NCBI GenBank assembly: GCA_964426545.1
Contig: CAYRQP010000005.1
Coordinates: 31,315 to 95,314 of the forward strand
Length of the DNA stretch: 64,000 nt
Origin: an uncultured bacterium
GTDB taxonomy: Bacteria; Fermentibacterota; Fermentibacteria; Fermentibacterales; JCC-6
Direction of reading: 5' to 3'
Each line of letters opens with the position of its first letter. Positions within the stretch are counted from its first letter, which is position 1. Under the pieces are notes generated by a model. The model did no database searches and was not told the DNA's origin. It was given only the letters and a program-made list of their open reading frames with translations. The position numbers and the translations under genes were made by a program. Below, one piece after another: positions 39,799 through 64,000 of this stretch.

Positions 39799-40008
39799 GG
39801 TAGGTGCTTATGGGGGACACACCTCTTTGAAGGCAGGAACTCCTTCGGCAGAGGAATGTCCCCAAATAGGACAAGAACATATAACGGCAGGTGCTAATAG
39901 GGGACACACCTCTTTGAAGGCAGGAACTCCTTCGGCAGAGGAATGTCCCCGGGTAGCGCAAAGCAAAAAGACCACAGTTGCAACGGGACACGAAGAAATC
40001 ATGTCCCT
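39799..40008. repeat. REP-like repeat cluster (two 65-bp family A units, one family B unit)
   Basis: Units 39799-39863 and 39886-39950 (period 87), each folding GGGGACA..CCTCT..GAAGG..CCTTC..AGAGG..TGTCCCC; family B copy at 39980-40008. Confidence 0.85.
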
Positions 40009-40050
40009 GTATTTTTATATATTTGGTATAACATTTTAAGGAAGGTGGAT

Positions 40051-41535
40051 ATGGAATTCAGTGATGATCTACGGAAGATACTGTCCGGGAACATAGACAG
40101 GTTAGTCAGAGCGGGTGCGGAATATGTCGACGCACGGTACTTTGCGGACGACAGCTCAGAATATCTTGTTCTGTATGATGGAGACCTGGAGGCCAATGAT
40201 ACGGGATTTCAGAGTGGACTCGGGGTGCGTGTGCTTTTCGGAGGTGCCTGGGGCTTTGCTGCGAGCAGTGATATGAGCAATGCTGTTGAATGTTTCGACA
40301 TGGCTCTTCAGAATGCACGAACCGCAGCAAAACTTGTTAAAGTACCTTTGTCCATGGGCAGGATAGATAGAATAGTCGGTAAATATTCTTCACCTGTCGA
40401 AGTCGACCCATTCGAGATGCCCCTCGAAGACAAACTCGATTTTCTGATTGGAATAGATAAGACACTTGCTGAAGACTGGATACTTCGGAGAATGGTATTT
40501 GCAAACCTGCAACGGAAGAGAATACTGTTCATGAACAGCGATGGTTCTGATATTGAGAAGGAGTTCCTGAATGTATTCGGTTCAATGGCCGTAATGGCAA
40601 TGGACAGTGACGGAGAAATGCAGCGGAGGAGCATGAGTCTTTTCTCTACGGGGGACGGTACCCGTGGCTGGGAGATGATTCTGCAGCCGGAACTGTATTC
40701 GGGACACAGCGACAGGATAAAGAGTGAGTTGTCCGGACTTCTATCCGCTGACACCTTGGAGTACGGGAAACGGTCAGTAATCCTACTCCCCGGACAGGGG
40801 CATCTGCAGGTGCACGAGACCATTGGTCATCCACTCGAACTCGACAGAATACTTGGTTATGAACTTTCTTATGCAGGAGGTTCTTTCGTAGGATTGGATG
40901 ATTTCGGGAAACTGCAGTACGGGACAGACAAACTCAATGTGAGTGCCTATGGCGAAATTGCCAATTCACCGGGCACATTTGGTTATGACGATGACGGAAT
41001 GCCTGAGCGGGATTATATGCTCATAGAGAACGGCATACTTGTAGATGCCATAACATCGAGGGCTATGATAAAAGAAGCGAATGAGAAGGCTGGTAGATCT
41101 GTGTTTGCCGAGTCAGGCGGTTCAGCAAGGGCAACTGCGTTCTACAGGAGCCCAATCGACAGGATGACGAATGTGAATATTCTGCCAGGAGATGATGGAA
41201 ATCTCGATGACATCATTGCTACTACGGAAGATGGAATCATCGTCGATAATCCGGTTTCGTGGTCAATTGGATCTAACAGGGAACATTTTCACTTCGGATG
41301 CGAGATAGCATGGGAGATCAGGAAAGGGAAGAAGACTCGAATATTGCGGAATCCTACATATCAGGGACATACTCTCGAATTCTACAACTCACTTTCAGCT
41401 GTAGGCAACCGGTCGACGTGGCGTGTCGAACAGGTCGCTAACTGCGGCAAGGGTGAACCGAATCAGATAATGCAGATTGGTCATGGGGTACCGATTATCC
41501 GTTTCGATTCAGTTATTTCAGGGGAGAGGAGCTGA
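40051..41535 (+). CDS. tldD: TldD-family metalloprotease
   Basis: GLGVRVLFGGAWGFA, HETIGHPLELDR (HExxGH), YDDDG, RMTNVNI, CGKGEPNQ; ATG 40051. Confidence 0.92.
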   Translation: MEFSDDLRKILSGNIDRLVRAGAEYVDARYFADDSSEYLVLYDGDLEANDTGFQSGLGVRVLFGGAWGFAASSDMSNAVECFDMALQNARTAAKLVKVPLSMGRIDRIVGKYSSPVEVDPFEMPLEDKLDFLIGIDKTLAEDWILRRMVFANLQRKRILFMNSDGSDIEKEFLNVFGSMAVMAMDSDGEMQRRSMSLFSTGDGTRGWEMILQPELYSGHSDRIKSELSGLLSADTLEYGKRSVILLPGQGHLQVHETIGHPLELDRILGYELSYAGGSFVGLDDFGKLQYGTDKLNVSAYGEIANSPGTFGYDDDGMPERDYMLIENGILVDAITSRAMIKEANEKAGRSVFAESGGSARATAFYRSPIDRMTNVNILPGDDGNLDDIIATTEDGIIVDNPVSWSIGSNREHFHFGCEIAWEIRKGKKTRILRNPTYQGHTLEFYNSLSAVGNRSTWRVEQVANCGKGEPNQIMQIGHGVPIIRFDSVISGERS

Positions 41536-41536
41536 T

Positions 41537-42910
41537 ATGATAGATGAAAGACTGAGAGGAATCCTTCGGAGAGTCCGCAACGAAGCAGAAACCAGAGGCA
41601 TAACCGCGTCGTTTGGACTACATCATGAGATAAGCCATTTAATGAGAATTGGCAATAATTCAGTATCTCTCAATACGAGCGAACAGCTTACCCGACTGGA
41701 TATAGAAGTCACAAACGGCCGCAGAAAAGGGAGTCATACACATCTCGGGTCAATCGAAGATGATAATATAGTTCTCGATGCACTCGATATTGCCGTAAAC
41801 AAAGCAAAGGTATCGAAACCACTGAATTATGACCCGATTCCTGGCCTGGTCGAAGAAACAGTAGAAGAGTCGGACCAGTACGACACGGCATTGGCTGAGT
41901 TGGATCCCGCGTTCAAGGCTGGTGCTTATGGAAGGATATTCGAAGAGGTCGGACCAGACTATAACTACTCGGGCTCGTGGTCGAGCGGTGTAATGGAGAA
42001 ATTCACTATAACCACCGGGACTAACAATGAATTCTACCATAAAAGTACTGACCAGCAGTTTACAATTGTTCTGAAGGATTCTGTCAATAAATGGGAACTT
42101 TCAGATGTTCAGACAGGCTGGAAACTGAATCAGTTCTCTGCTGATGTAACTATCGATAAATTCAGGAAGCTGCTTCCGGTTTATACTGAAAATGAAGGGT
42201 TCAAAGTGGAATCCGGAGATTACACTGTGATATTCGGTGCCGAAGCAGTCGCGGATATTGTGAGAATGGCTTTATGGACCGGATTCAGCGGCAGGGGCTG
42301 GGAGGAAAAAAGAGCATGGACAGCCGGGGCTGTTATTGGTGATAAGATACTCGGAGAGAATATCACAATTCTCGATGACCCGGAGAATCCGCTTACATTC
42401 ATGTTCGGGGCTGATGCAGCAGGTGTCAGGCGCAGGGAATTCATAGTAGTGGAAGACGGAGTGTTCCGAAATCTGATGTACGATGCATCCACAGCAGGAA
42501 AATACGGGAAGAGACCTACTGGCCATGATATCGGTTCTCCGGGAGTCTGTATGAAATGCGGCAATGGAGCTGAAAATCCCCTCGAAGCAGTCGACGGAAA
42601 AGGGCGTGTTCTTTTTATTCCCGCACTTCACTATGTGAATATCCCCAGTATGACGAAGGGTATCTTTACGGGAAGTTCGAGGTTCAACGCTCTTCTCATC
42701 GAGGATGGGAAAATTGTTTCACCGATATTTTCATCGAGAGTAACCGACAGTTTCGAGAACGTACTCGGAAATATCAGTGTTATTTCAGGCGTTCCGGAAT
42801 CAGTGAATGGTTCTAACACCTACGGGAGGAGAAGCCCGAGAGCTTCGGCTGTACCTTCCTACATCGTTGTTGAAAAGGTGAAAATTACTGACTCTGCGGA
42901 TTCATTCTAA
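41537..42910 (+). CDS. TldE/PmbA-family partner subunit
   Basis: Follows tldD; lacks HExxH; TILDDP..DAAGV..VEDGV, TGSSRF; ATG 41537. Confidence 0.85.
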   Translation: MIDERLRGILRRVRNEAETRGITASFGLHHEISHLMRIGNNSVSLNTSEQLTRLDIEVTNGRRKGSHTHLGSIEDDNIVLDALDIAVNKAKVSKPLNYDPIPGLVEETVEESDQYDTALAELDPAFKAGAYGRIFEEVGPDYNYSGSWSSGVMEKFTITTGTNNEFYHKSTDQQFTIVLKDSVNKWELSDVQTGWKLNQFSADVTIDKFRKLLPVYTENEGFKVESGDYTVIFGAEAVADIVRMALWTGFSGRGWEEKRAWTAGAVIGDKILGENITILDDPENPLTFMFGADAAGVRRREFIVVEDGVFRNLMYDASTAGKYGKRPTGHDIGSPGVCMKCGNGAENPLEAVDGKGRVLFIPALHYVNIPSMTKGIFTGSSRFNALLIEDGKIVSPIFSSRVTDSFENVLGNISVISGVPESVNGSNTYGRRSPRASAVPSYIVVEKVKITDSADSF

Positions 42911-50763: not shown

Positions 50764-52089
50764 TTGAAAGTCATTGTTGCAGGATTCAATACAGATATCG
50801 AGAATGGCGGGGCGACACCTGAAACAATATCGGCAGCTTATGCCCGGATCAGCCGTGATCCGCGTCCGGTTAACGAGATCAGGGCGGAGTCTGTGGAGGA
50901 AGTTGAAAAGGCACGCAGCTCCAACAGAACAATCATTTTTAAATATGGCCATGGTTCAATTGCAGAACACGCTGTATTCAACTTTGATATCCTGGGAATA
51001 TCGAGACTTGCCACAGAAGAACTTCAGAATTTTCGTCTTGCGAGTTTCACGGAAAAATCCCAGAGATATGTAAAAATAGGTGAAGACCCGGTCATCCCTT
51101 CGGAACTCGATCCGACTCAGATGAAGATGTATAGAAACACTGTTTCATTACTGCATGAAACTTATGAAATTCTATATGACAAACTGGCTGCTTCCGGATG
51201 CGACAAAGAGGTTGCACGGGAGGATGCACGGTATGTCCTTCCTCTCTGCACATCCACACAGATGGGGATGACGGTAAATGCAAGAGAACTCGAACACATA
51301 GTCAGGCGGCTGTCAGCAAGTCCCTACTCCGAAGTAAGGGAACTTGCAGGTAAACTGCTCGAAGCAGGACAGTCGATAGCACCTTCTTTGTTCCTGTTCT
51401 TCGAACCAACCCCGATGGATGTTTCCGCCTTCAGATTTTCATCCATTACGGGTGAATTTCCACAGGTGAGCCTTATTGAAACAGACAGTGATGCAAGAGT
51501 GGGGAGTTTTCTTGTTCAACAAGAGAAGGGAATCTCAATGACCCAATCCGCCGGATTGTGGAAAAATCTGTCCGATGATGATAAAGCCGGATATTTCATC
51601 GATGCTTATGAAGGGCTTGGTATTCATGATGCTCTCCCGCGGTGCTTTGAACTTTTCAGGGCGGATTTCGAGATAGTGCTTTCCGCTTCTGCCTATGCAC
51701 AGTTGAAAAGGCACAGGTTTGCCGCTCGCATGCGATCGGTCTATGATCCTGTGCTTGGAATTACCGTACCCCCGAGTGTCTGTGAAAACGGGCTGGAAGG
51801 GTATTTCAGAGAGAGAATCGAAAAGGCGGAAACTGCTGCAGGAAGGTTCGACAGACTCTATCCATACCTCCTGACAAATGCTCACCGGCGGAGAGTTGTT
51901 TTAAGCATGAACGGAAGAGAGTTATATCACTTCTCAAGGCTTAGGGAAGACAGGCATGCACAGTGGGATATCAGAAACATAGCAGAAGAAATGTTCGAAA
52001 TGTTAAGAAAATCCGCACCACTCACAATGATGCTGTCCGGAGGTAAGTCTGAAATGTCCCCTAAGGATGTTAAAATTCCACTTCTATAA
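50764..52089 (+). CDS. thyX: FAD-dependent thymidylate synthase, tandem two-domain form
   Basis: GHGSIAEH, SFTEKSQRY, EDARYVLP; second ThyX-like half AQLKRHR..NGRELYHFSRLR..AQWDIR. Confidence 0.9.
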   Translation: MKVIVAGFNTDIENGGATPETISAAYARISRDPRPVNEIRAESVEEVEKARSSNRTIIFKYGHGSIAEHAVFNFDILGISRLATEELQNFRLASFTEKSQRYVKIGEDPVIPSELDPTQMKMYRNTVSLLHETYEILYDKLAASGCDKEVAREDARYVLPLCTSTQMGMTVNARELEHIVRRLSASPYSEVRELAGKLLEAGQSIAPSLFLFFEPTPMDVSAFRFSSITGEFPQVSLIETDSDARVGSFLVQQEKGISMTQSAGLWKNLSDDDKAGYFIDAYEGLGIHDALPRCFELFRADFEIVLSASAYAQLKRHRFAARMRSVYDPVLGITVPPSVCENGLEGYFRERIEKAETAAGRFDRLYPYLLTNAHRRRVVLSMNGRELYHFSRLREDRHAQWDIRNIAEEMFEMLRKSAPLTMMLSGGKSEMSPKDVKIPLL

Positions 52090-54916
52090 TTCGCGGAATA
52101 CCGGTAACGTCTCCGGCAATCGGAGTCAATCTAAGGAGTATCACACCGGCGGTTTGTCCTATATCCAGTCCGTAATGCCATTTTAAATCACTGGAATAGA
52201 TCGACGGAAAGATATCCGAAAACCCACCGGATACAGTGGCATCATTCCAGCTGATACCGTTATCGAAACTGAATGCAGCTTCTATGGAGAGTCTTCTCTC
52301 TTCTGTGTCATCAAGCTGATACATAATCACGGCGGTTTCCAAATCAGTATCTGTAGAAGCAATCAGTGCCTGCACTACAATCGGGGCTGCTGAATTAACA
52401 ATAGTAAGAGGACCTATTACCTCCGAGAAAACAGTGTCTTTGTCAATTGCTCTAATTCGAATGTCAATTACTCTGTTTGTAACGGAAGGGAGGTCAACAG
52501 AACTGTTCCAATGCAGCGAAGATGAGTATTCAGCCGGTATAATCAGCCGGCTATTCTGTATCCCGGACACTTCAGACCAGTTTTCTTCATTGGGATCACA
52601 GTATTCAAGGATCAGTAAAATGTCATCGTACTCAATATCTGAGATACTGAATGATACCGGAATCACCCCGCTGATAATATCCCATTTTTCAGGATGTGTA
52701 ATTACAATCGATGGGATAGTATTATTGTCGAGGTGGAATGGAATCGATGGAACAGCGACTCCCATGTCCAGGTCTTCCGGAGTTGCCCTGAACCTGACCC
52801 TGAGCCCGTCGAATCCGGGAAGGTCTGTTTCGGAGTGCCAGAATACTGTGAACTGATTTGTACCCGCAGCACGGGTTCTGCCTTCAGGAACCGCTGCTAA
52901 ATGCCAGGTATCTCCGCCATCGGATGAATATTCATAACATACCCGCAAACTATCATTCTCCGGGTCAGCAATTCGCACCCCCAGTTCGACAATTCCGGAG
53001 ACTTCACGCATAGGAGCGATAATCTGCCCGGAAGGAATCTTGTCCGTATCCATGCTCATGTCATCGATGATACACCAGCTCCCAGGGTCACTATCCCATC
53101 CGCGTATCTTGAATGAGATGCCTGAAAGGTCTGAATATCCGAGGTCATGAAGTGCATCCCAGATAACAGGTTCTCCATATAACTCAGGGACTATTGCAGA
53201 AATTGTCCCATACAGATGTGCATCATGCCATGTTGCTCCATTGTTCAGCGAATATTGTGCCTGGAGCCGGATTGCGTCTCCTTCGGGTTCATCCACCGCA
53301 TAAGAGAGAGAAAACTTTCCCTCCTGAGTTTCCCGTGGGGTTGAAAGATATATGGTAGGTGAAATGTTGTTGTCGAGGTGAAAGACATTCGAGACAGCAC
53401 TTACTCCCGAACCGGAAACTGAAAATGGAGTGAGTCTGAGTGCACATTCCAAAATGTCCTGTCCGGGAAGGTCCTTTTCACTGTCCCAGATTATCTCATA
53501 TCCGGTGTCTGAAAAATTAAAGGTCGGTGTCCATGAAAAGCCGGCATCATTCGACCATTCGAGTGTTTTCGCAGTAACTGTACTTTCCCCGAGATCATAC
53601 GGGAATACAACATTACCTGACATTTCGGCTGCTATTGCTTCAGTTTCGAAAGTCGATAAGTCGCAGGAGCTCAAACATCCCGAATTGCGTGAGGTGCACA
53701 GAAGCTGCGGCCACGGCCAGGTTCCGGAGTCCGAACCAAGCGGGGAAAGATGAAACAATGAAAGTCTTCCGGCTCTTCCAAGTGCAGCGAGATATAGTTC
53801 ACCATTCCCGAGAATGTCTCCTACTGCGGGAGAAGTGGATAGAGCTTGATCGAAATCGACAGGAAAACCGGATATATTCTCCCCGAGACTGTTCCATGCG
53901 TAGATAGTACCTTTGTCAGTTCCAACGATGATTGCTATCTCACTTGAAATGACGGTGATAATCGGCGATGTCGGTTTTCCATCTGTCTGATTCGGCCACA
54001 TCCATGAACCGGCAAGAGAGCCGTCAGCATCCAGTAGAGTTACCCGTTCGTCTCTCGAAGAAACGGCTAACTGTATACCTGCGGCATCAGTTTCTATCTG
54101 CCCCAGTGCTATTGAACCGCTAACACAATTATCATCGAGGAAATAAGGCCATCCTTCGAGTCCTGTACCTGTGGTGGAAACGACATACAGACGTTTATTC
54201 GAAGTTGAAAATACGATATCACCAACACCGTCTGAATTGATGTCTCCTGTAACCGGAATAGATGTTGAAGCATACCCGGGCTGCAATGGCCATCCGGGAA
54301 CAATGGAACCATATTCGTCGAGTATCAGGATGGCGGTGGAAACAAGAGAGCAGACCAGACCATTTGCCCGTCTTCTATTCAGGGATACCTGAACCGGCTG
54401 CCATTGAAGTTTGGATGGTAGCTGAACCGGCCAGTTTGAGTATTCCGTGCCGTCGAATGCCAGACGATGAACAGCACCGTCTGATGTACCGAATGTAATT
54501 TCCGGAGTATCGTCATTGTTCAAGTCGACAATTGATACGCCTGAACAGATATCACCTGCATAAACAGGCCAGCCGGGCTGCGAATTTCCACTGTGATCAA
54601 CCGTATGAATCCATCCTGCATCATCGGCATAAACAATGACATTTTCGTGAAGGAAAGAAGAATAGCATCCGGCCGGTCGAAGAAAGACCCCCGCATCCGC
54701 TGAAAGAGGGAATGCTGTTATCTCAGAACCATGTCCCGTCCAGCCGCCGAGTCCGTTTTCACCGAGTGGGATGAAAATGTTCATGTTCCCTGAACCGGTT
54801 TCAGATAGCAGAATCCCGCTCGAAGGTATGTAACCCGTATCCAGTTCCCAAACCAATGAAGAGGTGCATATTGCCGGGAAGCAGATTAACATCAAAAGCA
54901 AAGTAATATAATTCAA
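52070..54916 (-). CDS. Secreted FG-GAP-like repeat protein with five C-terminal Ig-like modules
   Basis: Signal peptide; DLNNDDTPEI, GDINSDGVGDI, GDILGNGEL with PGWP/GWPY linkers; five repeats of Y..D.E.D..(E/Q)YS.(D/N)GG.(T/S)W; AGGAGG RBS before TTG 54916. Confidence 0.8.
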   Translation of the reverse strand: MNYITLLLMLICFPAICTSSLVWELDTGYIPSSGILLSETGSGNMNIFIPLGENGLGGWTGHGSEITAFPLSADAGVFLRPAGCYSSFLHENVIVYADDAGWIHTVDHSGNSQPGWPVYAGDICSGVSIVDLNNDDTPEITFGTSDGAVHRLAFDGTEYSNWPVQLPSKLQWQPVQVSLNRRRANGLVCSLVSTAILILDEYGSIVPGWPLQPGYASTSIPVTGDINSDGVGDIVFSTSNKRLYVVSTTGTGLEGWPYFLDDNCVSGSIALGQIETDAAGIQLAVSSRDERVTLLDADGSLAGSWMWPNQTDGKPTSPIITVISSEIAIIVGTDKGTIYAWNSLGENISGFPVDFDQALSTSPAVGDILGNGELYLAALGRAGRLSLFHLSPLGSDSGTWPWPQLLCTSRNSGCLSSCDLSTFETEAIAAEMSGNVVFPYDLGESTVTAKTLEWSNDAGFSWTPTFNFSDTGYEIIWDSEKDLPGQDILECALRLTPFSVSGSGVSAVSNVFHLDNNISPTIYLSTPRETQEGKFSLSYAVDEPEGDAIRLQAQYSLNNGATWHDAHLYGTISAIVPELYGEPVIWDALHDLGYSDLSGISFKIRGWDSDPGSWCIIDDMSMDTDKIPSGQIIAPMREVSGIVELGVRIADPENDSLRVCYEYSSDGGDTWHLAAVPEGRTRAAGTNQFTVFWHSETDLPGFDGLRVRFRATPEDLDMGVAVPSIPFHLDNNTIPSIVITHPEKWDIISGVIPVSFSISDIEYDDILLILEYCDPNEENWSEVSGIQNSRLIIPAEYSSSLHWNSSVDLPSVTNRVIDIRIRAIDKDTVFSEVIGPLTIVNSAAPIVVQALIASTDTDLETAVIMYQLDDTEERRLSIEAAFSFDNGISWNDATVSGGFSDIFPSIYSSDLKWHYGLDIGQTAGVILLRLTPIAGDVTGIPRIIEVEF

Positions 54917-55016
54917 ACATCCTCCTAAATTTAGGAACTTTTTCAAGAATATATAATATTATGTACAGAATACCACATAAGTCAACATGCTCTGAAATTA
55001 GGTGGCAAAGAACATC

Positions 55017-55044
55017 TTGACTAATTAGGATATTAGAATATACT
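55017..55044 (+). promoter_or_regulatory. Candidate sigma70 promoter for the 55-64 kb operon
   Basis: TTGACT-N16-TATACT. Confidence 0.35.
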
Positions 55045-55117: not shown

Positions 55118-56065
55118 ATGAGAATATTCATGCTTGCTGTTTTTCTAATCTCTTTACCTTTACCTGTAATGGCAGGTTCTCTGCCGTTTACCCGGTTCGG
55201 TGTTATCGATACACCTGATGCCTACTTACTCGAACACACTGAAATAGAGGCAGAAATAGCGGCTTCCGGTTATTCGCTGGCTAAAGCCCTGGAGGCAGAT
55301 ACTATAACCAATAGTGAATTCATGATCACCGGTCATTTCGATTTAGGATTATTTCGTTACGCACAGATTGGTGCATCTTTCCTTGGTGATGGCGGATTTA
55401 CCGGCAATTTGAAAATAGCCATACTACACGAAGGGGTATCTGTCCCGGCTTTTGCAATAGGACTTCAAAATATAAGTATGATTGAAGAGATAGAGTGTTT
55501 CAAGGAAGATTCCGCTGGAATACCCAACAGTGTATTTTATCAGTACGGTCACAGACAGAACTGGTCTGCTTATGGAGTTGTATCGAAAGACCTCACATAT
55601 CTGGCAGGCATTCCGGTAACCGTGAATTTCGGTATTGGAATAGGACGCTTTATCGGCAGTACGAACAATAGAAGTTATGCCCTGCACGGGATATTTTCTT
55701 CTGTTGTTTATCGCCCGACTGAAGTGATTTCTCTGGCAATGGAGATGGATGGAAGAGACTTGAATTTTGGAGTATCCTATGATATGCTGGATTTCTTCAC
55801 ATTGAAATTTGCCTGGGCAGAATTAGAGCAAACACTCTTGCCGGGTAATGATAATCCTAATCCAACAGATGTTATGACTCACTCAAAAATCACCATAGCA
55901 TTCTGTACACGATACGGTCCCATCTTCGGTGCTGACAGACTTCAACTCGAAGCAGAGCAGCAGCGTATTGACAGGGCAAGAGACAGACTGGACGAATTGG
56001 AAGAACGCAGAAGAGATGCTGAAGAAGAACTTCAGAATCTTCGTGACATGCTTGAAAGCAATTAG
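55118..56065 (+). CDS. YjbH-like outer-membrane beta-barrel protein with C-terminal coiled coil
   Basis: Signal peptide; GVIDTPDAYLL, alternating beta pattern, EMDGRDLNFG; C-terminal EAEQQRIDRARDRLDELEERRR. Confidence 0.65.
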   Translation: MRIFMLAVFLISLPLPVMAGSLPFTRFGVIDTPDAYLLEHTEIEAEIAASGYSLAKALEADTITNSEFMITGHFDLGLFRYAQIGASFLGDGGFTGNLKIAILHEGVSVPAFAIGLQNISMIEEIECFKEDSAGIPNSVFYQYGHRQNWSAYGVVSKDLTYLAGIPVTVNFGIGIGRFIGSTNNRSYALHGIFSSVVYRPTEVISLAMEMDGRDLNFGVSYDMLDFFTLKFAWAELEQTLLPGNDNPNPTDVMTHSKITIAFCTRYGPIFGADRLQLEAEQQRIDRARDRLDELEERRRDAEEELQNLRDMLESN

Positions 56066-56079
56066 AGAAGTTTGTCCAT

Positions 56080-59000
56080 ATGAAACATTCTCCGTTGTTA
56101 GTTACCACTCTCATCACTGCTGTTCTTCTCTTTGGCATGTCATTTGCCGAAGATACCCCGGACACAACTGATGATACGGAGACAACACCGGATACATTAC
56201 TGACCAGTTACCGTCTTGATGCAGCAGCGGCGGAACTATCTAACCTTGAGGCTCAGATTGCGCTGGAAGAAGCCAGATTAATTGATATAGAGGCCGAACT
56301 TGTGCTCCTCAGGAGAGAGAGTGCTATGGTGTCCAGTGCAGGAAGCGCGTTCCTTCTTGCCGAAGAACTTTATACATCCGGTTCTATCGTATGGGCAAAG
56401 GAAGCATTCGAATCAGTCGTGGAGAATTTCGATGACTCTCCCTACTATAGTGAAGCTATCTTCAGGCTCGAACTGATATTGTTCGAACTTCAGGACTATG
56501 AAGCGGCAAACGACTACTTCAACCTTCTTAGATCTGTAGACCCTGCATTTGAACATATCGACCTTGCTTTAATTACAGCAGGGCTCGCCCAGTTTAATCT
56601 TAAAGACTATGACTCATCCCTGGAGTATTATGAACAGGTAGCACCGTCGGGTGAATATGGAGCATTGGCAACATACCTTACAGCAGTAGTATATATTGAA
56701 AATGACAATATAGACCAGGCTCAAACTACATTCGAGAATATCCTCAATCGATCGGGCAACCTAAGCGGATCGGTTGAACTCGCTGACAGAACACGCATTG
56801 CGCTGGCACAGTTGAAAGTCGATGAGGGTAAACTCGATGAAGCTATCGACTACTATTCACAGGTATCTCCTTTCAGTGGATATTATGATGTCGCAATGCT
56901 CGGGAAGATATGGGCATATATGCGGCAGGAGGAATATCAGAAGGCATATGACCTGGCAGCGCGTGTAATGCAGGAAGTACCTGCATCTGAACTAAAAGAG
57001 GAATTCGAACTTGCGATGGCAAACTGTGCTCTCGGAGCGGAAGACCTTGATATTGCCGTCTCAATGTATCAGAATCTGCTTTCCCGTCATATACAGGTTG
57101 AAGAGAATCAGGACATATTCCTAAGTGAACACAATGTTGCTGCAGAAGAGTACGAACAGGAGAGAGAAAGACTGGACCGTATTAGGCTGGGGCTGGCTGA
57201 GCTAAAGGAGGAGGCATACGAACAGGGGGATGAAGAACTCGTTGCTCTGATCACTGCTGAAGAACTGGCTCTCAGGGAACTTTTTGTGGAAATCAGTAAT
57301 CTCGAAGTAATGCTCTCTCTTCCAATGAATATGAGTACAGAAACCATGATTCAGACATTAGAGAGTCTCATTCGGGAAAATCAGGACGAAACACAGATGC
57401 TTGCGCTTGCTATTGGTGATGTCAGAGATTTAGCCGAGATACACGGTACTGAACAGGACAGGGCAAACCTCATTGAACTCGAAGAAGAAGTGGAGAGAAT
57501 TAGACTTGCTCTTCAGGATCTCAGCACGAAGTTCGAAAGTTCAATGGCAGTCGGACATGACTGGGTGGAAGAGACGGAATACGGAATAGCCATTGCTACT
57601 TTTATGGAGCGCGAACTGAAGCGTGACTCGGTTACTTACCTGTCGTTGTATTACAGTGAAAAAATACAGGAGGCATATGACAGCGGGGACTCCTCCTCTG
57701 CAAATTCCCTTGAAGAAATGCGGAATGAGCAGATATCGAAATTGAATGAACGAATCGATGAAGATGCTGTCGTAAGTGCAGGTTATTTTGAGGAATACGA
57801 TGCGAATTATCCGGACTCGAGATTTATTCCGGATGTTCTTGTGAGATTGGCTCAACTGTACTACGACATTGATGGAAGGATACATGACGACCTGCTAGCC
57901 AATGCCGAAGAGGGTGAGTATATCCCGGATGACTACAGCAGGTCTATCGAACTTTACGAGAAAATCATTTCGGAGTATCCGGGAAGTGAACTCGAGGATG
58001 TTGCGCTCTATTCACTTGGGTATTGTCTTGAGAACATGATGGACTTTGAAGCAGGGGTTGACAGATACCAGGAATTGCTCCTGAAACATTCAACAAGTGT
58101 TTTGGCAGCAGAATGCAATATAAGAGTAGGAAACTATCATTTCGATAATCTTCGATATGACTCCGCTTTTGTTTACTACAATAGAATTCTGGAATTTCCT
58201 GCTGCAAGCCCAAACCTCTATCAACATGGATTGTATAAACTCGGATGGACAAAATACCTGCAGAAAGACTATGTGGGTTCAATAGCCGTATTCGCATATC
58301 TGCTTCAGGATGATCGGACAATACAGGAGTTGAACATAGAGCGTCAGGGGGACATGAGAATAATCAATGAAGCCAGACAATACATGGCGTATAATTTCCT
58401 GGAAATGGGAGATTCCGTATCTGTATTACCGCCCGTTCCGAGTGCTCTTACTTTCCTGACGGAATTCAACGATATCGAGACAACGATTTCCGTACTGAAA
58501 CAAATGGCAGAAATTTCAACAGGGGCGGAGGATTGGCAAACAGTCATTGAAGCATATCAGGCACTTCTCACGGCCGATCCGACCAGTCCCAATGCCCCAT
58601 ACTATCAGGCTGATATCGCTCTTGCCTATGAACAGAATGAACAATTTGCCAATGCTGCCGATGCCAGAGATGTATTAGTTGCAGTATATGGGGAAAATGG
58701 TGAATGGTTCGCTGTTATTGATGCGGACTCTGCACTTGCTTTTTCAGCTGATTCGCTACGGGTAAATTCGCTTGAAAGTGCAATTCAGTATTACCTTGAA
58801 CTATGTGTAAATACCAAAGAACAACCGGCAGCTTATCAGACTTCAAACGAAGAACTCATCGACCGTATACTGTTATACCTTGCTGAATACCCATCGAGTC
58901 AGAAAGTGTATGATTTCAAAGTTTATCTTGGAGATGCCTATTATCATCTGACCGATTATGAGAATGCTGGTGATGTGTACTATTCTGTCGCCATGGACAG

Positions 59001-60597
59001 CAGCAGTTTTCAGAATCAGGAAAGTTCATTCAATAATGCATTCCTCTCATATTTCGCCGCCTACGAAGGTGTCGGAGTCGATACACTGGATATACTTGGA
59101 AAAATGAAAGAGACGGTTATGGACTTCGAACGGGCATTTCCTCAGGGAGAGAATATCGCCGAAGACTATTGGCTGACGGCAATCCCGTTCTTTAATGCCG
59201 GACATTATTCTGATGTGAGAGAATTGCTCGAACCACTCTACGAAGACCAGTATTCCGGATATGCGGCCCGTTCAGCCAAATACATAGGTGATACATATAG
59301 TATTGATTCATTGTATGCCGATGCGGAACTATGGTATGACAGAGCCGAACAGATGGCATTTATCACGGGCGAAGACCTCGAAGCGGACATCGGATATCTG
59401 GCGGCAAGTTCAGCCTATAGTGATGCAATCTCCCTCGCTGAAAGCGAAACTTCTGAGGATCTGATCGCCGCTGCAGAAAGATGGGAACAGACAGCCATGT
59501 CTTATCCAAACACAGAAGTAGCCCCGGTTTCCCTGGATGATGCTGCAGATGCTTTCGACCGCGCAGGAGATATTGCCAATGCAGTCAGGGTATATGAAAA
59601 ACTCGCTGATCTTTATCCCCAATATATAAATTGTCCGCAAGGGCTGCTTCGGGCAGCATTTCTTCTGCGGGAGGATGAGCAGTTCACGCGTGCAGCACAG
59701 ATGTATGTAAGGGTCTATAATGAGTATCCGGGTTATGAAGGTGTGGTCAATGCACTCAGTACAGCTGCTCTGAGTTATGAAGATGCAGATGATATGTACA
59801 ATGCAATAAGCATCTACTCCAGAATTGCTACAGAGCGTGTCGGTGGCGCCGCAACAGTCATAGAAGCTTATGCGAAAATAGGGCTGTATGAATATGAGAG
59901 GGGCAACATCACAGTTGCAAGCGGGGATTTTTCGAATGTACTGTCTCTATATGATGAATATAGAGATGGTGTAACAACATATCCTGCAATGGCAGCATTC
60001 TATCTTGCTGAGGCTATGGGAGACAGTTATTATGCTCTTCCGCCTGCCAACACAGAGAATGTAGGATACAGAACTCAGCTTTTCAATGATGCTATTGCAT
60101 CTTACAACAGGACATTCAACTATCTGGAGGATGATTATCTCTTCCGTGCCGTTCTTAAGATTGGTGAACTGCAGATGGATTATGCAAATACAGTCGGGTT
60201 CATGGAAGCACCGGCAGGACTAACTCCCGAAGATGAAGATGTATTTTACAATACGCTGTTAGCAGTCTATGATGACTATTTTGCCAGGGCTATCTCGAGT
60301 TACGAAACAGGATTGGGTATAGCGGTCGAAAATGACATCCGAACTGTGTGGACAGATTCTATTGCCGCCAACCTCGACAATGTTGCATTCGGAGCAAGTA
60401 TAAATCTTGGATATACCGAGCCTGCGGAGCCGGAACCGGTGATAGAAGTGTCGGATACGACTTCCGTAAGTTCTGACAGCACCGATTTAGTACTGAATGA
60501 TAGTATATACACCGGAGATATTCAGGAGATTGATATCGCTGTGCCTGACGAATCTGCAACCGAGGATGACGGGGGGTGTTTCCTATGGCCATTCTAA
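56080..60597 (+). CDS. Large secreted TPR protein, GltC/GltD(AgmU)-like
   Basis: Signal peptide; many TPRs (DVALYSLGYCL, GLYKLGWTKY); C-terminal AVLKIGEL..P.GLTPEDEDVFYNTL..AISSYETGL..W pattern resembling GltD; central coiled coil. Confidence 0.7.
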   Translation: MKHSPLLVTTLITAVLLFGMSFAEDTPDTTDDTETTPDTLLTSYRLDAAAAELSNLEAQIALEEARLIDIEAELVLLRRESAMVSSAGSAFLLAEELYTSGSIVWAKEAFESVVENFDDSPYYSEAIFRLELILFELQDYEAANDYFNLLRSVDPAFEHIDLALITAGLAQFNLKDYDSSLEYYEQVAPSGEYGALATYLTAVVYIENDNIDQAQTTFENILNRSGNLSGSVELADRTRIALAQLKVDEGKLDEAIDYYSQVSPFSGYYDVAMLGKIWAYMRQEEYQKAYDLAARVMQEVPASELKEEFELAMANCALGAEDLDIAVSMYQNLLSRHIQVEENQDIFLSEHNVAAEEYEQERERLDRIRLGLAELKEEAYEQGDEELVALITAEELALRELFVEISNLEVMLSLPMNMSTETMIQTLESLIRENQDETQMLALAIGDVRDLAEIHGTEQDRANLIELEEEVERIRLALQDLSTKFESSMAVGHDWVEETEYGIAIATFMERELKRDSVTYLSLYYSEKIQEAYDSGDSSSANSLEEMRNEQISKLNERIDEDAVVSAGYFEEYDANYPDSRFIPDVLVRLAQLYYDIDGRIHDDLLANAEEGEYIPDDYSRSIELYEKIISEYPGSELEDVALYSLGYCLENMMDFEAGVDRYQELLLKHSTSVLAAECNIRVGNYHFDNLRYDSAFVYYNRILEFPAASPNLYQHGLYKLGWTKYLQKDYVGSIAVFAYLLQDDRTIQELNIERQGDMRIINEARQYMAYNFLEMGDSVSVLPPVPSALTFLTEFNDIETTISVLKQMAEISTGAEDWQTVIEAYQALLTADPTSPNAPYYQADIALAYEQNEQFANAADARDVLVAVYGENGEWFAVIDADSALAFSADSLRVNSLESAIQYYLELCVNTKEQPAAYQTSNEELIDRILLYLAEYPSSQKVYDFKVYLGDAYYHLTDYENAGDVYYSVAMDSSSFQNQESSFNNAFLSYFAAYEGVGVDTLDILGKMKETVMDFERAFPQGENIAEDYWLTAIPFFNAGHYSDVRELLEPLYEDQYSGYAARSAKYIGDTYSIDSLYADAELWYDRAEQMAFITGEDLEADIGYLAASSAYSDAISLAESETSEDLIAAAERWEQTAMSYPNTEVAPVSLDDAADAFDRAGDIANAVRVYEKLADLYPQYINCPQGLLRAAFLLREDEQFTRAAQMYVRVYNEYPGYEGVVNALSTAALSYEDADDMYNAISIYSRIATERVGGAATVIEAYAKIGLYEYERGNITVASGDFSNVLSLYDEYRDGVTTYPAMAAFYLAEAMGDSYYALPPANTENVGYRTQLFNDAIASYNRTFNYLEDDYLFRAVLKIGELQMDYANTVGFMEAPAGLTPEDEDVFYNTLLAVYDDYFARAISSYETGLGIAVENDIRTVWTDSIAANLDNVAFGASINLGYTEPAEPEPVIEVSDTTSVSSDSTDLVLNDSIYTGDIQEIDIAVPDESATEDDGGCFLWPF

Positions 60598-61046
60598 AGA
60601 TATGTAAGTTATGTATAATTGGACTCCTGATGCTAATACCAGTACGGAGCCTTGCCCAGACTGAAGAAGAAGGAGCATCTGCCACATGGTCAGGGGGCAG
60701 GCTTGTTCTCGAAGAAATAGAAATCAGGGGTGAATTACGCACCCCCCAGGCAATATTTATGATGCTTAAAACTACTCCTGACCTGAGCAATGTACTTCTT
60801 GAACGAAGCTTTCTCGAGGATGTAGTTCGTCCTATCTATCCGGGTGCTTATACCGATGATCCCATTTTTGGATCAGCAAGAGAAACCTCCGTACTCCCCG
60901 CATGGGTCAGATATGGATCAGTGGTTGTTTTGGGCGGTATTTCGGGATATAGTTATTCGCAGGATAAGGATGAAGAGGGTTTTGTCTTTGCTGTAATTGC
61001 CGGAATCGATCTTATCGGAAATATTATTCTGGAACTTGTCAACTAA
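60585..61046 (+). CDS. Small exported protein, GltF/CglF-like, with extra C-terminal hydrophobic hairpin
   Basis: Signal peptide; LVLEEIEIRGELRTPQAIF..RSFLEDVV resembles the GltF-type I.G....P...(F/Y) motif; start 60585 or GTG 60576. Confidence 0.55.
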   Translation: MAILKICKLCIIGLLMLIPVRSLAQTEEEGASATWSGGRLVLEEIEIRGELRTPQAIFMMLKTTPDLSNVLLERSFLEDVVRPIYPGAYTDDPIFGSARETSVLPAWVRYGSVVVLGGISGYSYSQDKDEEGFVFAVIAGIDLIGNIILELVN

Positions 61047-61115
61047 TTGTTAAGTAGTGTAAGAAAAATGTTCAACTTTTGAAATCGTAGATTTGAAAAA
61101 GAGAAGGGAAAATTA

Positions 61116-61967
61116 ATGAAAAGAAACAGACTTCCGATACTATTGGCTGTTCTTATGATCTTTGCAGGAGGAATCGTGTTTGCACAGACAGAAGAAGCAG
61201 CAATAGATTCTTTGATCGCTGATACGACTGCAATAGCAGATACAGATATCATTGCTGCAGCACCGGCAACACCTGTAGAAGAGCCCGACACAGTTGCAAC
61301 TGAAGAAACTCCGGAAGAAGTGACAAGCGGAAGCATATTCTCACAGGCAGCGGATTTCTTCCGCAAGGGCGGATTTGCCATGTGGTTCATTCTTGTTTTC
61401 CTTGCATGCGGACTGGCGATAATTGTAGAGAGGGTGATATTCCTGTACTCTGTTGCAAACATCAAGCCGGAACGGTTCATGGGAAAGATAGCAGACCTCA
61501 TTCGTAAGGGAAGCGTAGAAGGTGCCATTGCATCCTGCGGAGAAAGCCATGCCCCGCTCGCGAGAATCATCGATTCAGCACTTCGTAATCACAGGAATAC
61601 TGAGCGTGACATCCAGAACGCAGTCGATGAAATGGCTCTCGCAGAACTGCCGCGATTGAATGCGCGAACAGGTTACCTGGCCATGCTTGCCAATGTGTGT
61701 ACGATGGTCGGACTACTTGGTACGATATTTGGTCTTATTGAAGCATTCAGGTCTGTTGCAGCAGCCGACCCTGCCGAGAAGACAATAATGCTTGCAAATG
61801 GTATTTCGACGGCTATGAGTACAACTGCATTCGGACTGATTGCTGCCATCCCATTGCTCATTGCACATTCGGTTCTTACATCCAAAACCGATGCTTTGGT
61901 TGATGATATCGACAGATTTTCTGTGATGGTCATCAACATGCTTGCTCAGTCCCGGAAGGAGGGCTGA
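61116..61967 (+). CDS. MotA/TolQ/ExbB proton channel protein (AglR-like)
   Basis: MLANVCTMVGLLGTIFGLIEAF, GISTAMSTTAFGL; N-terminal signal peptide and acidic linker. Confidence 0.92.
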   Translation: MKRNRLPILLAVLMIFAGGIVFAQTEEAAIDSLIADTTAIADTDIIAAAPATPVEEPDTVATEETPEEVTSGSIFSQAADFFRKGGFAMWFILVFLACGLAIIVERVIFLYSVANIKPERFMGKIADLIRKGSVEGAIASCGESHAPLARIIDSALRNHRNTERDIQNAVDEMALAELPRLNARTGYLAMLANVCTMVGLLGTIFGLIEAFRSVAAADPAEKTIMLANGISTAMSTTAFGLIAAIPLLIAHSVLTSKTDALVDDIDRFSVMVINMLAQSRKEG

Positions 61968-62539
61968 TGGCACAGGCAGCCAGTGGACGAAGCCGCAGAA
62001 AAAAGCGTGCGGAAGAACTCGATCTTCTTCCCGTGATGAACCTTTTCTGTGTTATAATCCCTTTCCTGCTTTTCAGTGCCAGCTTTCTTGAGATTACTGT
62101 TATAGAAATGAGTCCCACTGAAGGTATAGGACAGGGGGGAGCAGGAACCACAAACCTTGCCAAAAGCGAGGAAGAACTGCTTCAGCCCAGGATAATAATG
62201 ACTACCGATGAGATGTTCCTGGGAACGGTATTCGGGACAATTCCGGTGTGTGATGCTCACTGGGTTGAGCACGACGGCGAGACTATCAGAAGCTATGATT
62301 ATTCTGCACTGGGAGACGAACTCGATAATCTCAGGAACGAACTGACCACTCAGTTTCCTTCAGTACCCGTCAGCAAGATCATCATACTTGCCCAGGATGA
62401 AATACGGTATTCAAATCTGATAGATGCAATTGACACTGCCCGTGAGTACGGCTTTGACCAGCCGGGACTGCAGGTATCGGCAGCTGAAGTGATTGCACGG
62501 CAACTAGCTGCAATGGAAGCTGCAGGAGGTGTGGAATAA
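61967..62539 (+). CDS. ExbD/TolR family protein 1 (Agl-type; Asn at the usual TM Asp position)
   Basis: ELDLLPVMNLFCVIIPFLL; IIILAQDEIRYSNLIDAIDTARE. Confidence 0.85.
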   Translation: MAQAASGRSRRKKRAEELDLLPVMNLFCVIIPFLLFSASFLEITVIEMSPTEGIGQGGAGTTNLAKSEEELLQPRIIMTTDEMFLGTVFGTIPVCDAHWVEHDGETIRSYDYSALGDELDNLRNELTTQFPSVPVSKIIILAQDEIRYSNLIDAIDTAREYGFDQPGLQVSAAEVIARQLAAMEAAGGVE

Positions 62540-63063
62540 TGGCAATGAAACCTTCACAGAGAAAAGTGCCGCTTCTCCTTGGTTACAAGAAGAACAAGGC
62601 AATCATGCGCGGAAAGGACAAGAAAGTAACATTAAACCTTACTTCCATGATAGATATGTTCACTATTCTTGTCGTATTTCTTCTTAAAAGTTACAGTGCA
62701 GAAGGTCAACTCATTACAATAAGTGATTCACTGACGCTCCCACAATCGGTTTCAGCGGAAACAGTCGAATTGAATCTCGATATCGTGGTCAGCAGAGATG
62801 TCATACTTGTAGACGGCGATCCGGTTTACGAGATAGGCGAACAACTGATAGACGGCAGCCCGATACCATTACTTGTCGACCGGCTTTCAGACCATATGGA
62901 ATATACACTGGCCAGTCGGGGTAATACCGGTGAGGATATGGAAATTAATATTCAGGCAGATGTCGCCACACCGGCACTTCTTCTTCAAAAGGTAATGGCA
63001 AGTTGCGGCGCGGCAGGTTATGTAACTCAAAATCTGGCGGTGATCAAAGCAGGAGGCGAATAA
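62539..63063 (+). CDS. ExbD/TolR family protein 2 (AglS-like)
   Basis: LNLTSMIDMFTILVVFLLKSYSAEG; INIQADVATP..LQKVMASC. Confidence 0.88.
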   Translation: MAMKPSQRKVPLLLGYKKNKAIMRGKDKKVTLNLTSMIDMFTILVVFLLKSYSAEGQLITISDSLTLPQSVSAETVELNLDIVVSRDVILVDGDPVYEIGEQLIDGSPIPLLVDRLSDHMEYTLASRGNTGEDMEINIQADVATPALLLQKVMASCGAAGYVTQNLAVIKAGGE

Positions 63064-63064
63064 G

Positions 63065-64000
63065 ATGACTACCGAGAAGACTGAGAAAAAAGTACTGGCT
63101 ATAGCTGCAAGGCGCGACGGAAAAGTAATCGGGAAATATCTTCCGGGCAAAAAACCAATTTGTCTGGGTTTTGGTTATGACAGCGATATTATTGTAGAAG
63201 AAGATTCAGGATTACCCGAAAGTCTTGTACTCATCAGCAAGAGTGAAACCCCGGACGAATGGGAGCTCAAACTAACCGATGGAATGCAGTGCGTAATTAC
63301 ATCGGGAGACGGATCGAAACTCAATTTCGAAGACATGAAAGACTTCGGGATATTCCCCGTTGCTTCAGATGGCTGTTATATGTTGACTTTCAAGTATGGT
63401 GATACCGCCGAAATACATGCTGGTACAACGGAGGTAAAAATAGGGTTTGTACCCCCTCCTGCCAAAGCCAAAAAAGTAATGCCGAAAATCAAGCAATCGA
63501 AGAAGGCGGAATCAGTCGAACCTTCTAAAAATACTGATTTTGTTCTGAAACTCGTCATTACTGATTCTTCCGGTGAAAGGGAATTATTTCCCAAAGCAGG
63601 ATTGATGACTGTCGGACAGGCTGATTACAACACTGTATGCTGCACTTCATGCAAAAAACTACCAAGAATTCACACTCTTCTTGAACCTGTTGATGATAGA
63701 TACAAATTGACACTTATTCCGTCTATCAAAGGCGGGATTTACATAAAAGGCAAGAAAATAGAGTTTTCTACATTCATTAAGCGAAACCTGATGCAGAAAG
63801 ACCCTTCGGTTGAAGGTCAATACTCCTGGATATTCGTTAAGAACATTACCGGTGTATTCGACATTGGAGACACAAATATATCATTCAGTTTTGTAGAACC
63901 ACCCGCAGTTGTTGAGAAAAAACCGGAACCTGTTGAAATTCCTAAGGTCAAACAAATTGTCCCCGAGTACAATTGGGAGGATTTCGGCACCCGTCCGCAT
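63065..64000 (+). CDS. GltG/AgmX-like protein, N-terminal part with two tandem FHA-like domains (3'-truncated; absent from ORF track)
   Basis: Hand translation: 312 open codons from ATG 63065 to window end; domain 1 VLAIAARRDGKVIG..KIGFVPPP, domain 2 VLKLVITD..SFSFVEPP. Confidence 0.7.
   Translation, partial: MTTEKTEKKVLAIAARRDGKVIGKYLPGKKPICLGFGYDSDIIVEEDSGLPESLVLISKSETPDEWELKLTDGMQCVITSGDGSKLNFEDMKDFGIFPVASDGCYMLTFKYGDTAEIHAGTTEVKIGFVPPPAKAKKVMPKIKQSKKAESVEPSKNTDFVLKLVITDSSGERELFPKAGLMTVGQADYNTVCCTSCKKLPRIHTLLEPVDDRYKLTLIPSIKGGIYIKGKKIEFSTFIKRNLMQKDPSVEGQYSWIFVKNITGVFDIGDTNISFSFVEPPAVVEKKPEPVEIPKVKQIVPEYNWEDFGTRPH

Follow-up and report, generated by a model that had tools for sequence, protein, structure and literature searches.

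A conserved seven-gene operon of Fermentibacterota probably encodes an envelope-spanning machine of the Agl-Glt core complex type

Luciano et al. (2011) grouped the Group B genes aglR, aglQ, aglS, gltD, gltE, gltG and gltC of the adventurous gliding machinery of Myxococcus under the name of Agl-Glt core complex. They found these genes clustered in Gammaproteobacteria, one betaproteobacterium, Geobacter and Fibrobacter succinogenes, where their function is unknown, and they argued that the core complex, which is present in bacteria without documented gliding, is not sufficient by itself for motility. We describe here a related operon from an uncultured bacterium of the phylum Fermentibacterota. 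It lies at the end of a 64,000-nucleotide stretch of contig CAYRQP010000005.1 (positions 31,315 to 95,314, forward strand; assembly GCA_964426545.1), which is called the window below. Its seven genes, designated g1 to g7, probably encode a self-contained machine that is driven by the proton-motive force, spans the whole envelope and is of the Agl-Glt core complex type. A preliminary description of the window had spoken of a complete core Agl-Glt homolog. The motor and the GltG-like parts of this claim held, and so, by similarity to a protein in the GltD position, did the GltD-like part, while completeness did not, as GltE is absent, GltC is present at most as a fused module and the similarity to GltF is weak.

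The seven genes were found where the preliminary description had placed a co-oriented, tightly packed set, all on the plus strand (Table 1). Their spacing ranges from -13 to +69 nt, with a one-base overlap at the g4/g5 and g5/g6 junctions and a 1-nt gap between g6 and g7. Pfam recognized tetratricopeptide repeat (TPR) families in g2, MotA_ExbB in g4 and ExbD in g5 and g6, and gave no match for g1, g3 and g7. The exact g6 protein is encoded by 24 public contigs. Contigs L001 and L002, which are 100% identical to the last 1462 nt of the window, were used to extend it and gave the full-length g7 protein of 625 amino acids. Beyond g7 they carry groES/groEL on the opposite strand, preceded by an inverted repeat whose sequence looks like a bidirectional intrinsic terminator. 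Because of this terminator-like element and the opposite orientation of groES/groEL, we take the operon to comprise exactly seven genes. The promoter-like site upstream of g1 corresponds to L001 2479-2506 (offset +52538); it matches a sigma-70-like consensus that may not be the phylum's own.

Table 1. Genes and sites of the operon and its divergent neighbour (window positions unless a contig is named)
Feature	Position	Strand	Description
958-aa exported neighbour	52070..54946	-	GWP/FG-GAP-type propeller repeats and five ~100-aa BNR-like beta-sandwich repeats (S.D.G.[ST]W motifs)
Promoter-like site TTGACT-16-TATACT	55017..55044	+	10/12 consensus match; in the 171-nt divergent intergenic region upstream of g1
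g1	55118-56065	+	315 aa
g2	56080-60597	+	1505 aa
g3	60585-61046	+	153 aa; ATG at 60585, GTG at 60576
g4	61116-61967	+	283 aa
g5	61967-62539	+	190 aa
g6	62539-63063	+	174 aa
g7	63065 to beyond 64000	+	312 of 625 codons inside the window; 942 nt outside
Terminator-like repeat	L001 12443-12486, just past the window end		Perfect 20-bp inverted repeat with T and A tracts alongside, between converging g7 and groEL

Clusters of similar composition were found in other lineages. In a Myxococcota metagenome-assembled genome (MAG; locus L067), the order is GltC-like protein, 1191-aa TPR protein, GltE-like protein, CglF/GltF-like protein of 100 aa, MotA, ExbD, ExbD and GltG-like protein. The top NCBIfam matches at this locus were gliding_GltC (71.6 bits), gliding_GltE (103.7 bits) and CglF (21 bits), with 138 bits for the GltG-like protein; the core complex of Luciano et al. 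is present there with each of its seven genes, and the GltF-like gene is additional. In a Coatesbacteria-like MAG (L063), two TPR proteins of 948 and 1312 aa are followed by proteins of 223 and 141 aa, MotA, ExbD, ExbD and a GltG-like protein. We also observed a minimal module devoid of TPR genes (L066 10001-14928), consisting of a 925-aa GltG-like protein, MotA and two ExbD. Profiles built from the Fermentibacterota orthologs were scored position by position against L067, L063 and L066, and the pattern of matches to L063 and L066 was the same as to L067.

The channel gene of the cluster is g4, at the place of AglR. It matched Pfam MotA_ExbB with an E-value of 1e-26 (93.6 bits), retains the LGT and TTxxGL channel motifs and had TolQ (2e-11) as its best relative in the PDB, above ExbB and MotA. 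Yet it scored only 77.9 bits against the TolQ equivalog of NCBIfam (cut-off 221) and 54.2 bits against that of ExbB (cut-off 206); the motor proteins likewise stayed far under the cut-offs of the TolR equivalog (14.4 bits, cut-off 127) and of the ExbD equivalog (13.9 bits, cut-off 153). The g4 profile scored higher against the MotA proteins linked to GltG-like genes in the three other lineages (171.5 bits for L067, 188 for L063 and 148 for L066). Thus, as the preliminary description had supposed, this is not an ordinary Tol-Pal or ExbBD set. The N-terminus of g4 (window 61116-61380) contains a signal-peptide-like segment and a Thr/Glu/Ala/Pro-rich acidic stretch of about 65 residues ahead of the first transmembrane helix. 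This extension is absent from the MotA proteins of L063, L066 and L067 (207-222 aa) and in some Fermentibacterota orthologs the matches extend over only part of it (coverage 74-100%).

Two distinct TolR/ExbD-like genes lie directly 3' of the channel gene, at the place of aglQ and aglS. Pfam ExbD was matched by g5 (5e-10), which has a Gly-rich linker after its helix, and by g6 (1e-11). g5 matched only the first ExbD of L063, L066 and L067 (22-55 bits; 55 for L067), and g6 only the second (43-63 bits; 48 for L067). Judged from these scores, g4 is a TolQ/AglR-like channel subunit and g5 and g6 are TolR/ExbD-like paralogs that are not interchangeable. The transmembrane Asp is kept in g6 (Asp39; Asp in 59/59 orthologs) and is replaced in g5 by Asn25, at the position of ExbD D25 and TolR D23 (Asn in 58/58 orthologs). 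An axle with a single Asp argues for an obligate g5:g6 heterodimer within a g4 pentamer, like the predicted AglR5QS stoichiometry (PMC11761067). In L063, L066 and L067, the first ExbD paralog has Asn, Ala and Asn, respectively, and the second has Asp in all three; across four lineages, then, the first ExbD/TolR paralog is devoid of the transmembrane Asp and the second contains it. This asymmetry appears to be a general trait of core-type motors, and one so far unreported. In this respect g5 departs from AglQ and AglS of M. xanthus, which according to a review both have Asp.

The 312 codons of g7 that lie inside the window found nothing when used as a homology query, while the full-length protein did. 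The AlphaFold2 (AF2) model of the latter comprises two beta domains, a transmembrane helix, a disordered linker and an alpha/beta C-terminal domain. We delimited a forkhead-associated (FHA) fold at residues 10-129, a second one at 160-277, the helix at 321-344, a Gly/Ser linker and a TonB-like C-terminal domain of the AgmX/PglI type at 532-622. With Foldseek, both beta domains were identified as FHA folds, with EssC, which has a tandem FHA, as the top match and numerous FHA domains at a probability of 1.0 and a TMt of ~0.6; the C-terminus matched the TonB C-terminal domain 6sly. The tandem FHA-like domains proposed in the preliminary description are therefore borne out by the model and by Foldseek, without support from sequence profiles: PF00498 had no match in g7 in the Pfam search, and a sequence search against the PDB gave none. 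A TonB-like domain had also been predicted past the end of the window, and it is indeed present there, after the transmembrane helix and the linker. The isolated last ~90 residues of g7 scored 44.8 bits against the AgmX/PglI C-terminal domain model NF033768 (cut-off 40), and TonB_C gave 19.9-22.6 bits (Pfam gathering threshold 24.6; E 1e-3 to 1e-4).

This architecture (FHA, transmembrane helix, linker, TonB-like C-terminal domain) is that of GltG. M. xanthus GltG (PglI, MXAN_4867) has a length of 640 aa, close to that of g7, and consists of an FHA domain (1-114), a central FHA domain (190-329), a helix (330-348), a linker and a TonB-like domain (544-640) (PMC11761067), so that the domain order is identical and the positions of the helix and of the C-terminal domain nearly coincide. 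The sequence similarity is in contrast very low, and residues 21-136 of g7 align with positions 214-328 of the gliding_GltG model, which correspond to the central FHA. Both FHA folds of g7 resemble this membrane-proximal domain and not the N-terminal PF00498 domain of GltG. In a manual alignment to the canonical FHA motif, the Arg is replaced by Gln/Glu and the Ser by Pro (GQ/GE and LPRIH). Because these binding residues are replaced, the FHA-like domains of g7 probably do not read phosphothreonine. The linker, Gly/Ser-rich in g7 and Pro-rich in GltG, contains invariant motifs such as GEE, IGFAAYGTG and GGGSGG, as would suit a segment that docks in the way predicted for the stretch of GltG in the groove of GltD (PMC11761067).

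An exhaustive profile search with the g7 family yielded 823 relatives at E<=1e-3. The best ones outside the phylum are mostly proteins of ~450 aa in which a single FHA-like domain is followed by a helix, a linker and the tail seen in g7, and those tested scored 138-191 bits on gliding_GltG over model positions ~204-650. The homology of g7 to GltG, at the level of sequence, is transitive through these relatives. The 925-aa protein of L066 is built differently: by inspection, it has three repeats that resemble FHA and a hydrophobic insert that may cross the membrane with several helices.

The exported protein g2 stands where the clusters of other lineages encode GltD-type scaffolds; GltD is likewise an exported TPR protein, of ~1200 aa. 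Against the 1191-aa protein in the GltD position of L067, the ortholog profile of g2 scored 202.6 bits (E 4e-58 at Z=1e6), and residues 533-1424 of g2 are colinear with residues 116-1136 of this protein (~900 residues); the 1312-aa protein of L063 gave 95 bits. Profiles thus back the similarity between TPR proteins that had been suggested earlier, and residues ~530-1430 of g2 are, on this alignment, homologous to the TPR scaffolds in the GltD position. The link to GltD itself is one of position, as no GltD model was matched by g2 in the NCBIfam scans. The protein also contains repeated TPR units of the YbgF/CpoB type (106 bits, 5 stretches). GltD homologues likewise give YbgF-type matches, so this signal is generic. 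The N-terminal region of g2 and the GltC-like protein of L067 (x788) share, by inspection, a layout of signal peptide, coiled coil, TPR and coiled coil, and they can be aligned weakly. On these two grounds a GltC-GltD fusion in g2 is possible.

The small protein g3, which has a signal-peptide-like N-terminus (by inspection), occupies the place of GltF/CglF in the Myxococcota clusters. It matched no Pfam or NCBIfam family. In hhalign, its counterpart in L063, a protein of 141 aa in the corresponding place, was matched with a probability of 93%, and an EI[KR]GE-24-SFL[DE] spacing is common to g3, this 141-aa protein and the 100-aa protein of L067.

The first gene encodes a protein with a cleavable signal peptide and no lipobox, for which Pfam and NCBIfam gave no usable match. 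We built an alignment from database matches for structure prediction, and the AF2 model has about 12 strands, with a predicted local distance difference test score (pLDDT) of 74.7 and a predicted TM-score (pTM) of 0.66. Foldseek returned 67 matches at E<=1e-3, the best 50 of which were almost all outer-membrane barrels (FadL, OmpA, FapF, NanC/KdgM); the best superpositions among the matches listed were with 12-strand KdgM/NanC porins (TMt 0.52-0.59) and FapF. The outer-membrane barrel of the preliminary description is thus upheld by the model and by the structural matches, though sequence profiles do not support it. The C-terminal 43 residues (272-314) form a charged coiled-coil helix that is nearly invariant (RLELEREQQRIERAR.RL.ELE.RRRAAE.ELQRLRDLLE). 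From the even number of strands, this helix is predicted to be periplasmic, and g1 models as an outer-membrane barrel that bears it. FapF, the amyloid secretion barrel of Pseudomonas, and the KdgM/NanC porins resemble g1 in having about 12 strands, and FapF also carries a periplasmic coiled coil. This helix is N-terminal in FapF and C-terminal in g1. Furthermore, these barrels share only 7-13% identity with g1, have no detectable sequence similarity to it and belong to unrelated genomic contexts. All 103 homologues of g1 resemble Fermentibacterota sequences by their length and identity, and those that are named are without exception from the phylum; no relatives were found outside it, and L063, L065, L066 and L067 have no counterpart. 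Since g1 in addition matches no Glt model, the operon appears, as proposed earlier, to use an outer-membrane component of its own rather than GltA/B/H.

A scan that took one genome per species yielded 60 related loci, and all of them came from Fermentibacterota MAGs. The genes g1 to g7 are found in the same order and with the same spacing in 44/44 loci that are long enough, which answers positively the question of synteny across related MAGs; the remaining 16/60 miss at least one gene, mostly because the contig stops within the cluster. This gene-for-gene recurrence in every one of the 44 sufficiently long loci among the 60 means that the arrangement is not due to chance. The identity to each window protein correlates with that of groEL (rho 0.43-0.70), which fits vertical inheritance, and the seven-gene set looks, from these comparisons, vertically inherited across the Fermentibacterota. 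A horizontally acquired island was considered and rejected in view of the flat base composition (GC 44-48% in the window), the fixed synteny and the divergence that tracks groEL. The cluster is single-copy and lies among housekeeping genes such as thyX and groESL. All named g7 and g1 homologues belong to Ca. Aegiribacteria, Sabulitectum, Fermentibacter or Fermentibacteria (formerly Hyd24-12), and most of them are annotated as 'hypothetical protein' in public records.

The host had been guessed to be a member of the Fibrobacteres-Chlorobi-Bacteroidetes (FCB) group, and the Fermentibacterota are indeed a fermenter phylum of this group. In the passages that we used of the phylum's founding genomic study, they are depicted as rod-shaped diderm fermenters with MreB and without flagella (PMC5030696). 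The passages of this study on motility, pili, TonB and secretion do not mention the system, and no connection between Fermentibacterota and Agl-Glt is made in the searchable literature.

Several observations weigh against the assignment of the operon to the core complex type. The homology to the named M. xanthus proteins AglR, AglQ, AglS and GltD is transitive, by way of NCBIfam models and a Myxococcota MAG. The gliding_GltG equivalog gave only 29 bits on g7 (cut-off 650), so that by NCBI's rule g7 is a family relative and not an ortholog; NF033768 scored 39.9 bits on the full-length protein, marginally below its cut-off of 40, and the transmembrane helix does not have the SxxxH motif of several GltG-like relatives. 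For GltE, a TPR lipoprotein of ~470 aa, there is no candidate: g2 did not match NF033758 at E<=1, its profile did not match the GltE-like protein x571 of L067, and no other gene in the operon qualifies. GltC, the TPR protein that links up with the outer-membrane barrels, has no gene of its own here; the alignment of g2 residues 91-298 with the GltC-like protein is weak (23% identity over 208 residues, 41.6 bits by BLASTP, 32.7 bits with the profile), and residues 1-560 gave no match to the GltC model NF033756 at E<=10. For g3, the hhalign probability against the CglF-like 100-aa protein of L067 was a marginal 46%, which makes the similarity to GltF weak. A search for transcripts found the sequence only in DNA metagenome runs (marine, seawater). 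Finally, the contacts between the proteins and their stoichiometry are drawn from analogy.

By analogy with TolQ5R2-TolA and with the predicted AglR5QS-GltG complex, five g4 subunits would surround a g5:g6 heterodimer, and proton flow via the single Asp-bearing axle would move the helix of g7. The linker of g7 would thread through the peptidoglycan and run along the g2 scaffold, where the C-terminal domain would dock. g2, perhaps using the GltC-like module at its N-terminus and bridged by g3, might then engage the coiled-coil helix of g1, and force or a conformational change would in this way reach the outer membrane. The FHA-fold domains would sit beneath the channel and connect to cytoplasmic partners. 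Such a machine is probably a force transducer in the style of Tol and TonB rather than a gliding engine. Its output is most likely a housekeeping task in the envelope or in surface transport, which we favour over gliding because of the universal single-copy conservation of the cluster among housekeeping genes and because equivalents of the adhesin, GltI/J and GltA/B/H/K are missing.

The first candidate for this output is the work of Tol-Pal: the motor and g7, the latter in the role of TolA, would pull on g1 and g2, keep the outer membrane attached and constrict it at division. A single-copy cluster that is vertically inherited throughout the phylum in the company of thyX and groESL is what such a task would lead one to expect, and the ranking of TolQ as the best solved relative of g4, the YbgF/CpoB-type units of g2 and the description of the AglR5QS-GltG model as closely similar to TolQ5R2-TolA (PMC11761067) point the same way. 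However, the cluster is devoid of a TolB, Pal or TolA signature (neither TolB nor Pal was found within 10 kb, and g7 gave no TolA match), the TolQ and TolR cut-offs were missed widely, TolA does not possess cytoplasmic FHA domains, and the YbgF-type signal is of the generic kind mentioned above. We regard a functional equivalent of Tol-Pal as possible, though doubtful.

Alternatively, the machine could move a surface polymer or protein along or across the outer membrane, as do Agl-Nfs or a capsule-linked machine, the cargo being a glycan or the 958-aa exported protein encoded next to g1. Agl-Glt paralogs carry out non-motility transport in Myxococcus, where Agl-Nfs moves the spore-coat polysaccharide (PMC3169522, PMC3858216). 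In another Myxococcota MAG (JABWCM01; L065 587-7818), a 485-aa GltG-like gene was observed directly upstream of genes for a BBP2-type barrel, a Wza-like Poly_export protein and a Wzc-like Wzz/GNVR tyrosine kinase, which ties a transducer of the GltG family physically to polysaccharide export. Sugar transferase and aminotransferase genes are present ~5 kb downstream of the operon. The 958-aa propeller/BNR-repeat protein adjoins g1 divergently in every locus that is long enough (35-50% identity) and may be a partner or a cargo of the machine; it showed only weak BNR, FG-GAP and propeller matches, no T9SS (type IX secretion system) C-terminal domain and no match in a PDB sequence search. The preliminary description had also credited the lineage with T9SS-type cargo; no T9SS C-terminal domain was found among the 16 larger open reading frames (ORFs) of the window that were scanned. 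These links to surface transport are circumstantial: the operon contains no polysaccharide export genes, a faint match of g1 to the exopolysaccharide outer-membrane protein YjbH (E 0.15) is far below threshold, and a barrel of 12 strands is small for a secretion pore. A role as a surface mover therefore appears unlikely to us.

Motility is the least likely output. Adventurous gliding of the Myxococcus type would agree with the homology of the core parts to AglRQS, GltD and GltG and with the flagellum-free, MreB-containing rods described in the consulted passages of PMC5030696. Against this, the cluster holds no equivalents of GltA/B/H/K, CglB, GltI, GltJ or AglZ, the core complex alone is insufficient for motility according to Luciano et al., and the N-terminal FHA of GltG, the predicted binder of the GltI scaffold, is replaced in g7 by a second central-type domain, all of which makes gliding very improbable. 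Lastly, an ordinary ExbB-ExbD-TonB energizer of TonB-dependent outer-membrane transporters, which the order MotA/ExbB, ExbD, ExbD, TonB-like gene with a TPR gene nearby (as in TonB clusters of the FCB group) and the weak TonB_C matches of g7 might evoke, can hardly be entertained, given that TonB_C stays below the Pfam gathering threshold with the AgmX/PglI domain scoring higher, that the ExbB and ExbD equivalogs are missed widely, that the 320 cytoplasmic residues of g7, with their two FHA folds, have no equivalent in TonB, that no 22-strand plugged transporter is found nearby (g1 has about 12 strands and no plug), and that the partners map position by position onto Glt clusters.

A few other features were recorded. 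The thyX ORF (window 50764-52089) is 441 aa long, about twice the usual length, and contains two Thy1 stretches, which suggests a tandem-domain ThyX. A PmbA/TldD metallopeptidase pair occurs ~2 kb downstream of the core cluster in L067 (13246-16568) and in the window another precedes the operon by ~12 kb (39943-42910); this is probably a coincidence. Two proteins carry the linker and C-terminal domain of the g7 type on other domains. In P0108 (L069 1135-3411), which matches the tail of g7 with E 4e-66, they follow a Ser/Thr kinase, and P0113 (L070 6001-7938), which lies near an IS21 element, joins a TIR domain to a piece resembling, by eye, the C-terminus of g2 and to the g7-type tail. Both might act as additional transducers on the same scaffold, or might result from rearrangement or from chimeric assembly; the latter two are possible since each protein is on one short or insertion sequence (IS)-flanked contig, and we did not use them as evidence.

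The core complex has been known since 2011 and its function is unexplained outside Myxococcota; the consulted surveys of its spread took in one FCB genome. In the sampled members of an uncultured FCB phylum, the GltG/AglRQS/GltD module is universal and syntenic, and relatives with the same gene order recur in Myxococcota MAGs and in one other candidate phylum at least, which bears directly on the origin of the gliding machine. The system also offers a compact model of one scaffold, one small exported protein, a barrel, a transducer and a three-gene motor, which could prove much easier to model and reconstitute than the 17-protein machine of Myxococcus. The conserved Asn/Asp asymmetry would imply that the motor is obligately 5:1:1 and that only one residue in it carries protons. 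A more far-reaching proposal, which we advance as speculative and rather unlikely in its entirety, is that the main Tol-like envelope motor of Fermentibacterota is a minimal, vertically inherited Agl-Glt machine complete in seven proteins, among them a barrel of its own and a scaffold in which GltC and GltD are fused. Were this true, the core complex would have a long history in the envelopes of the FCB group and of neighbouring candidate phyla and would not be a proteobacterial invention handed to Fibrobacter by gene transfer, and the ancestral motor would already have had the single-Asp heterodimeric axle in which one TolR-like subunit has Asn.

Compared with TolQ-TolR-TolA and ExbB-ExbD-TonB, the Fermentibacterota machine shares a proton channel of the 5:2-type family, with TolQ as the closest solved protein; its transducer, like theirs, crosses the membrane once and has a long linker in the periplasm, after which a TonB/TolA-like C-terminal domain serves to reach partners in the outer membrane. 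It differs from them by its two different TolR/ExbD paralogs, only one of which has the Asp, by the large cytoplasmic FHA module (~320 residues) of its transducer, and by its partners, a giant TPR scaffold and a small barrel instead of TolB/Pal or TonB-dependent transporters. The full gliding machinery of Myxococcus comprises in addition GltA/B/H, GltK, CglB, GltI and GltJ, which were not found in the operon, and GltF, to which g3 has the weak similarity given above. The closest known kind is the Agl-Glt core complex, with which the operon has in common one TolQ-like and two TolR-like genes, a GltG-like transducer after them and a giant GltD-like TPR protein before them, all in one operon, as well as a small additional exported protein (g3). 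What is new in comparison is the loss of GltE, the absence of a separate gltC, which is perhaps fused to the N-terminus of the GltD-like protein, the two central-type FHA folds of g7, the signal peptide and acidic extension at the N-terminus of the channel subunit g4, the lineage-specific barrel with its coiled-coil tail and, instead of a patchy distribution, an inheritance that looks vertical across a whole phylum of the FCB group.

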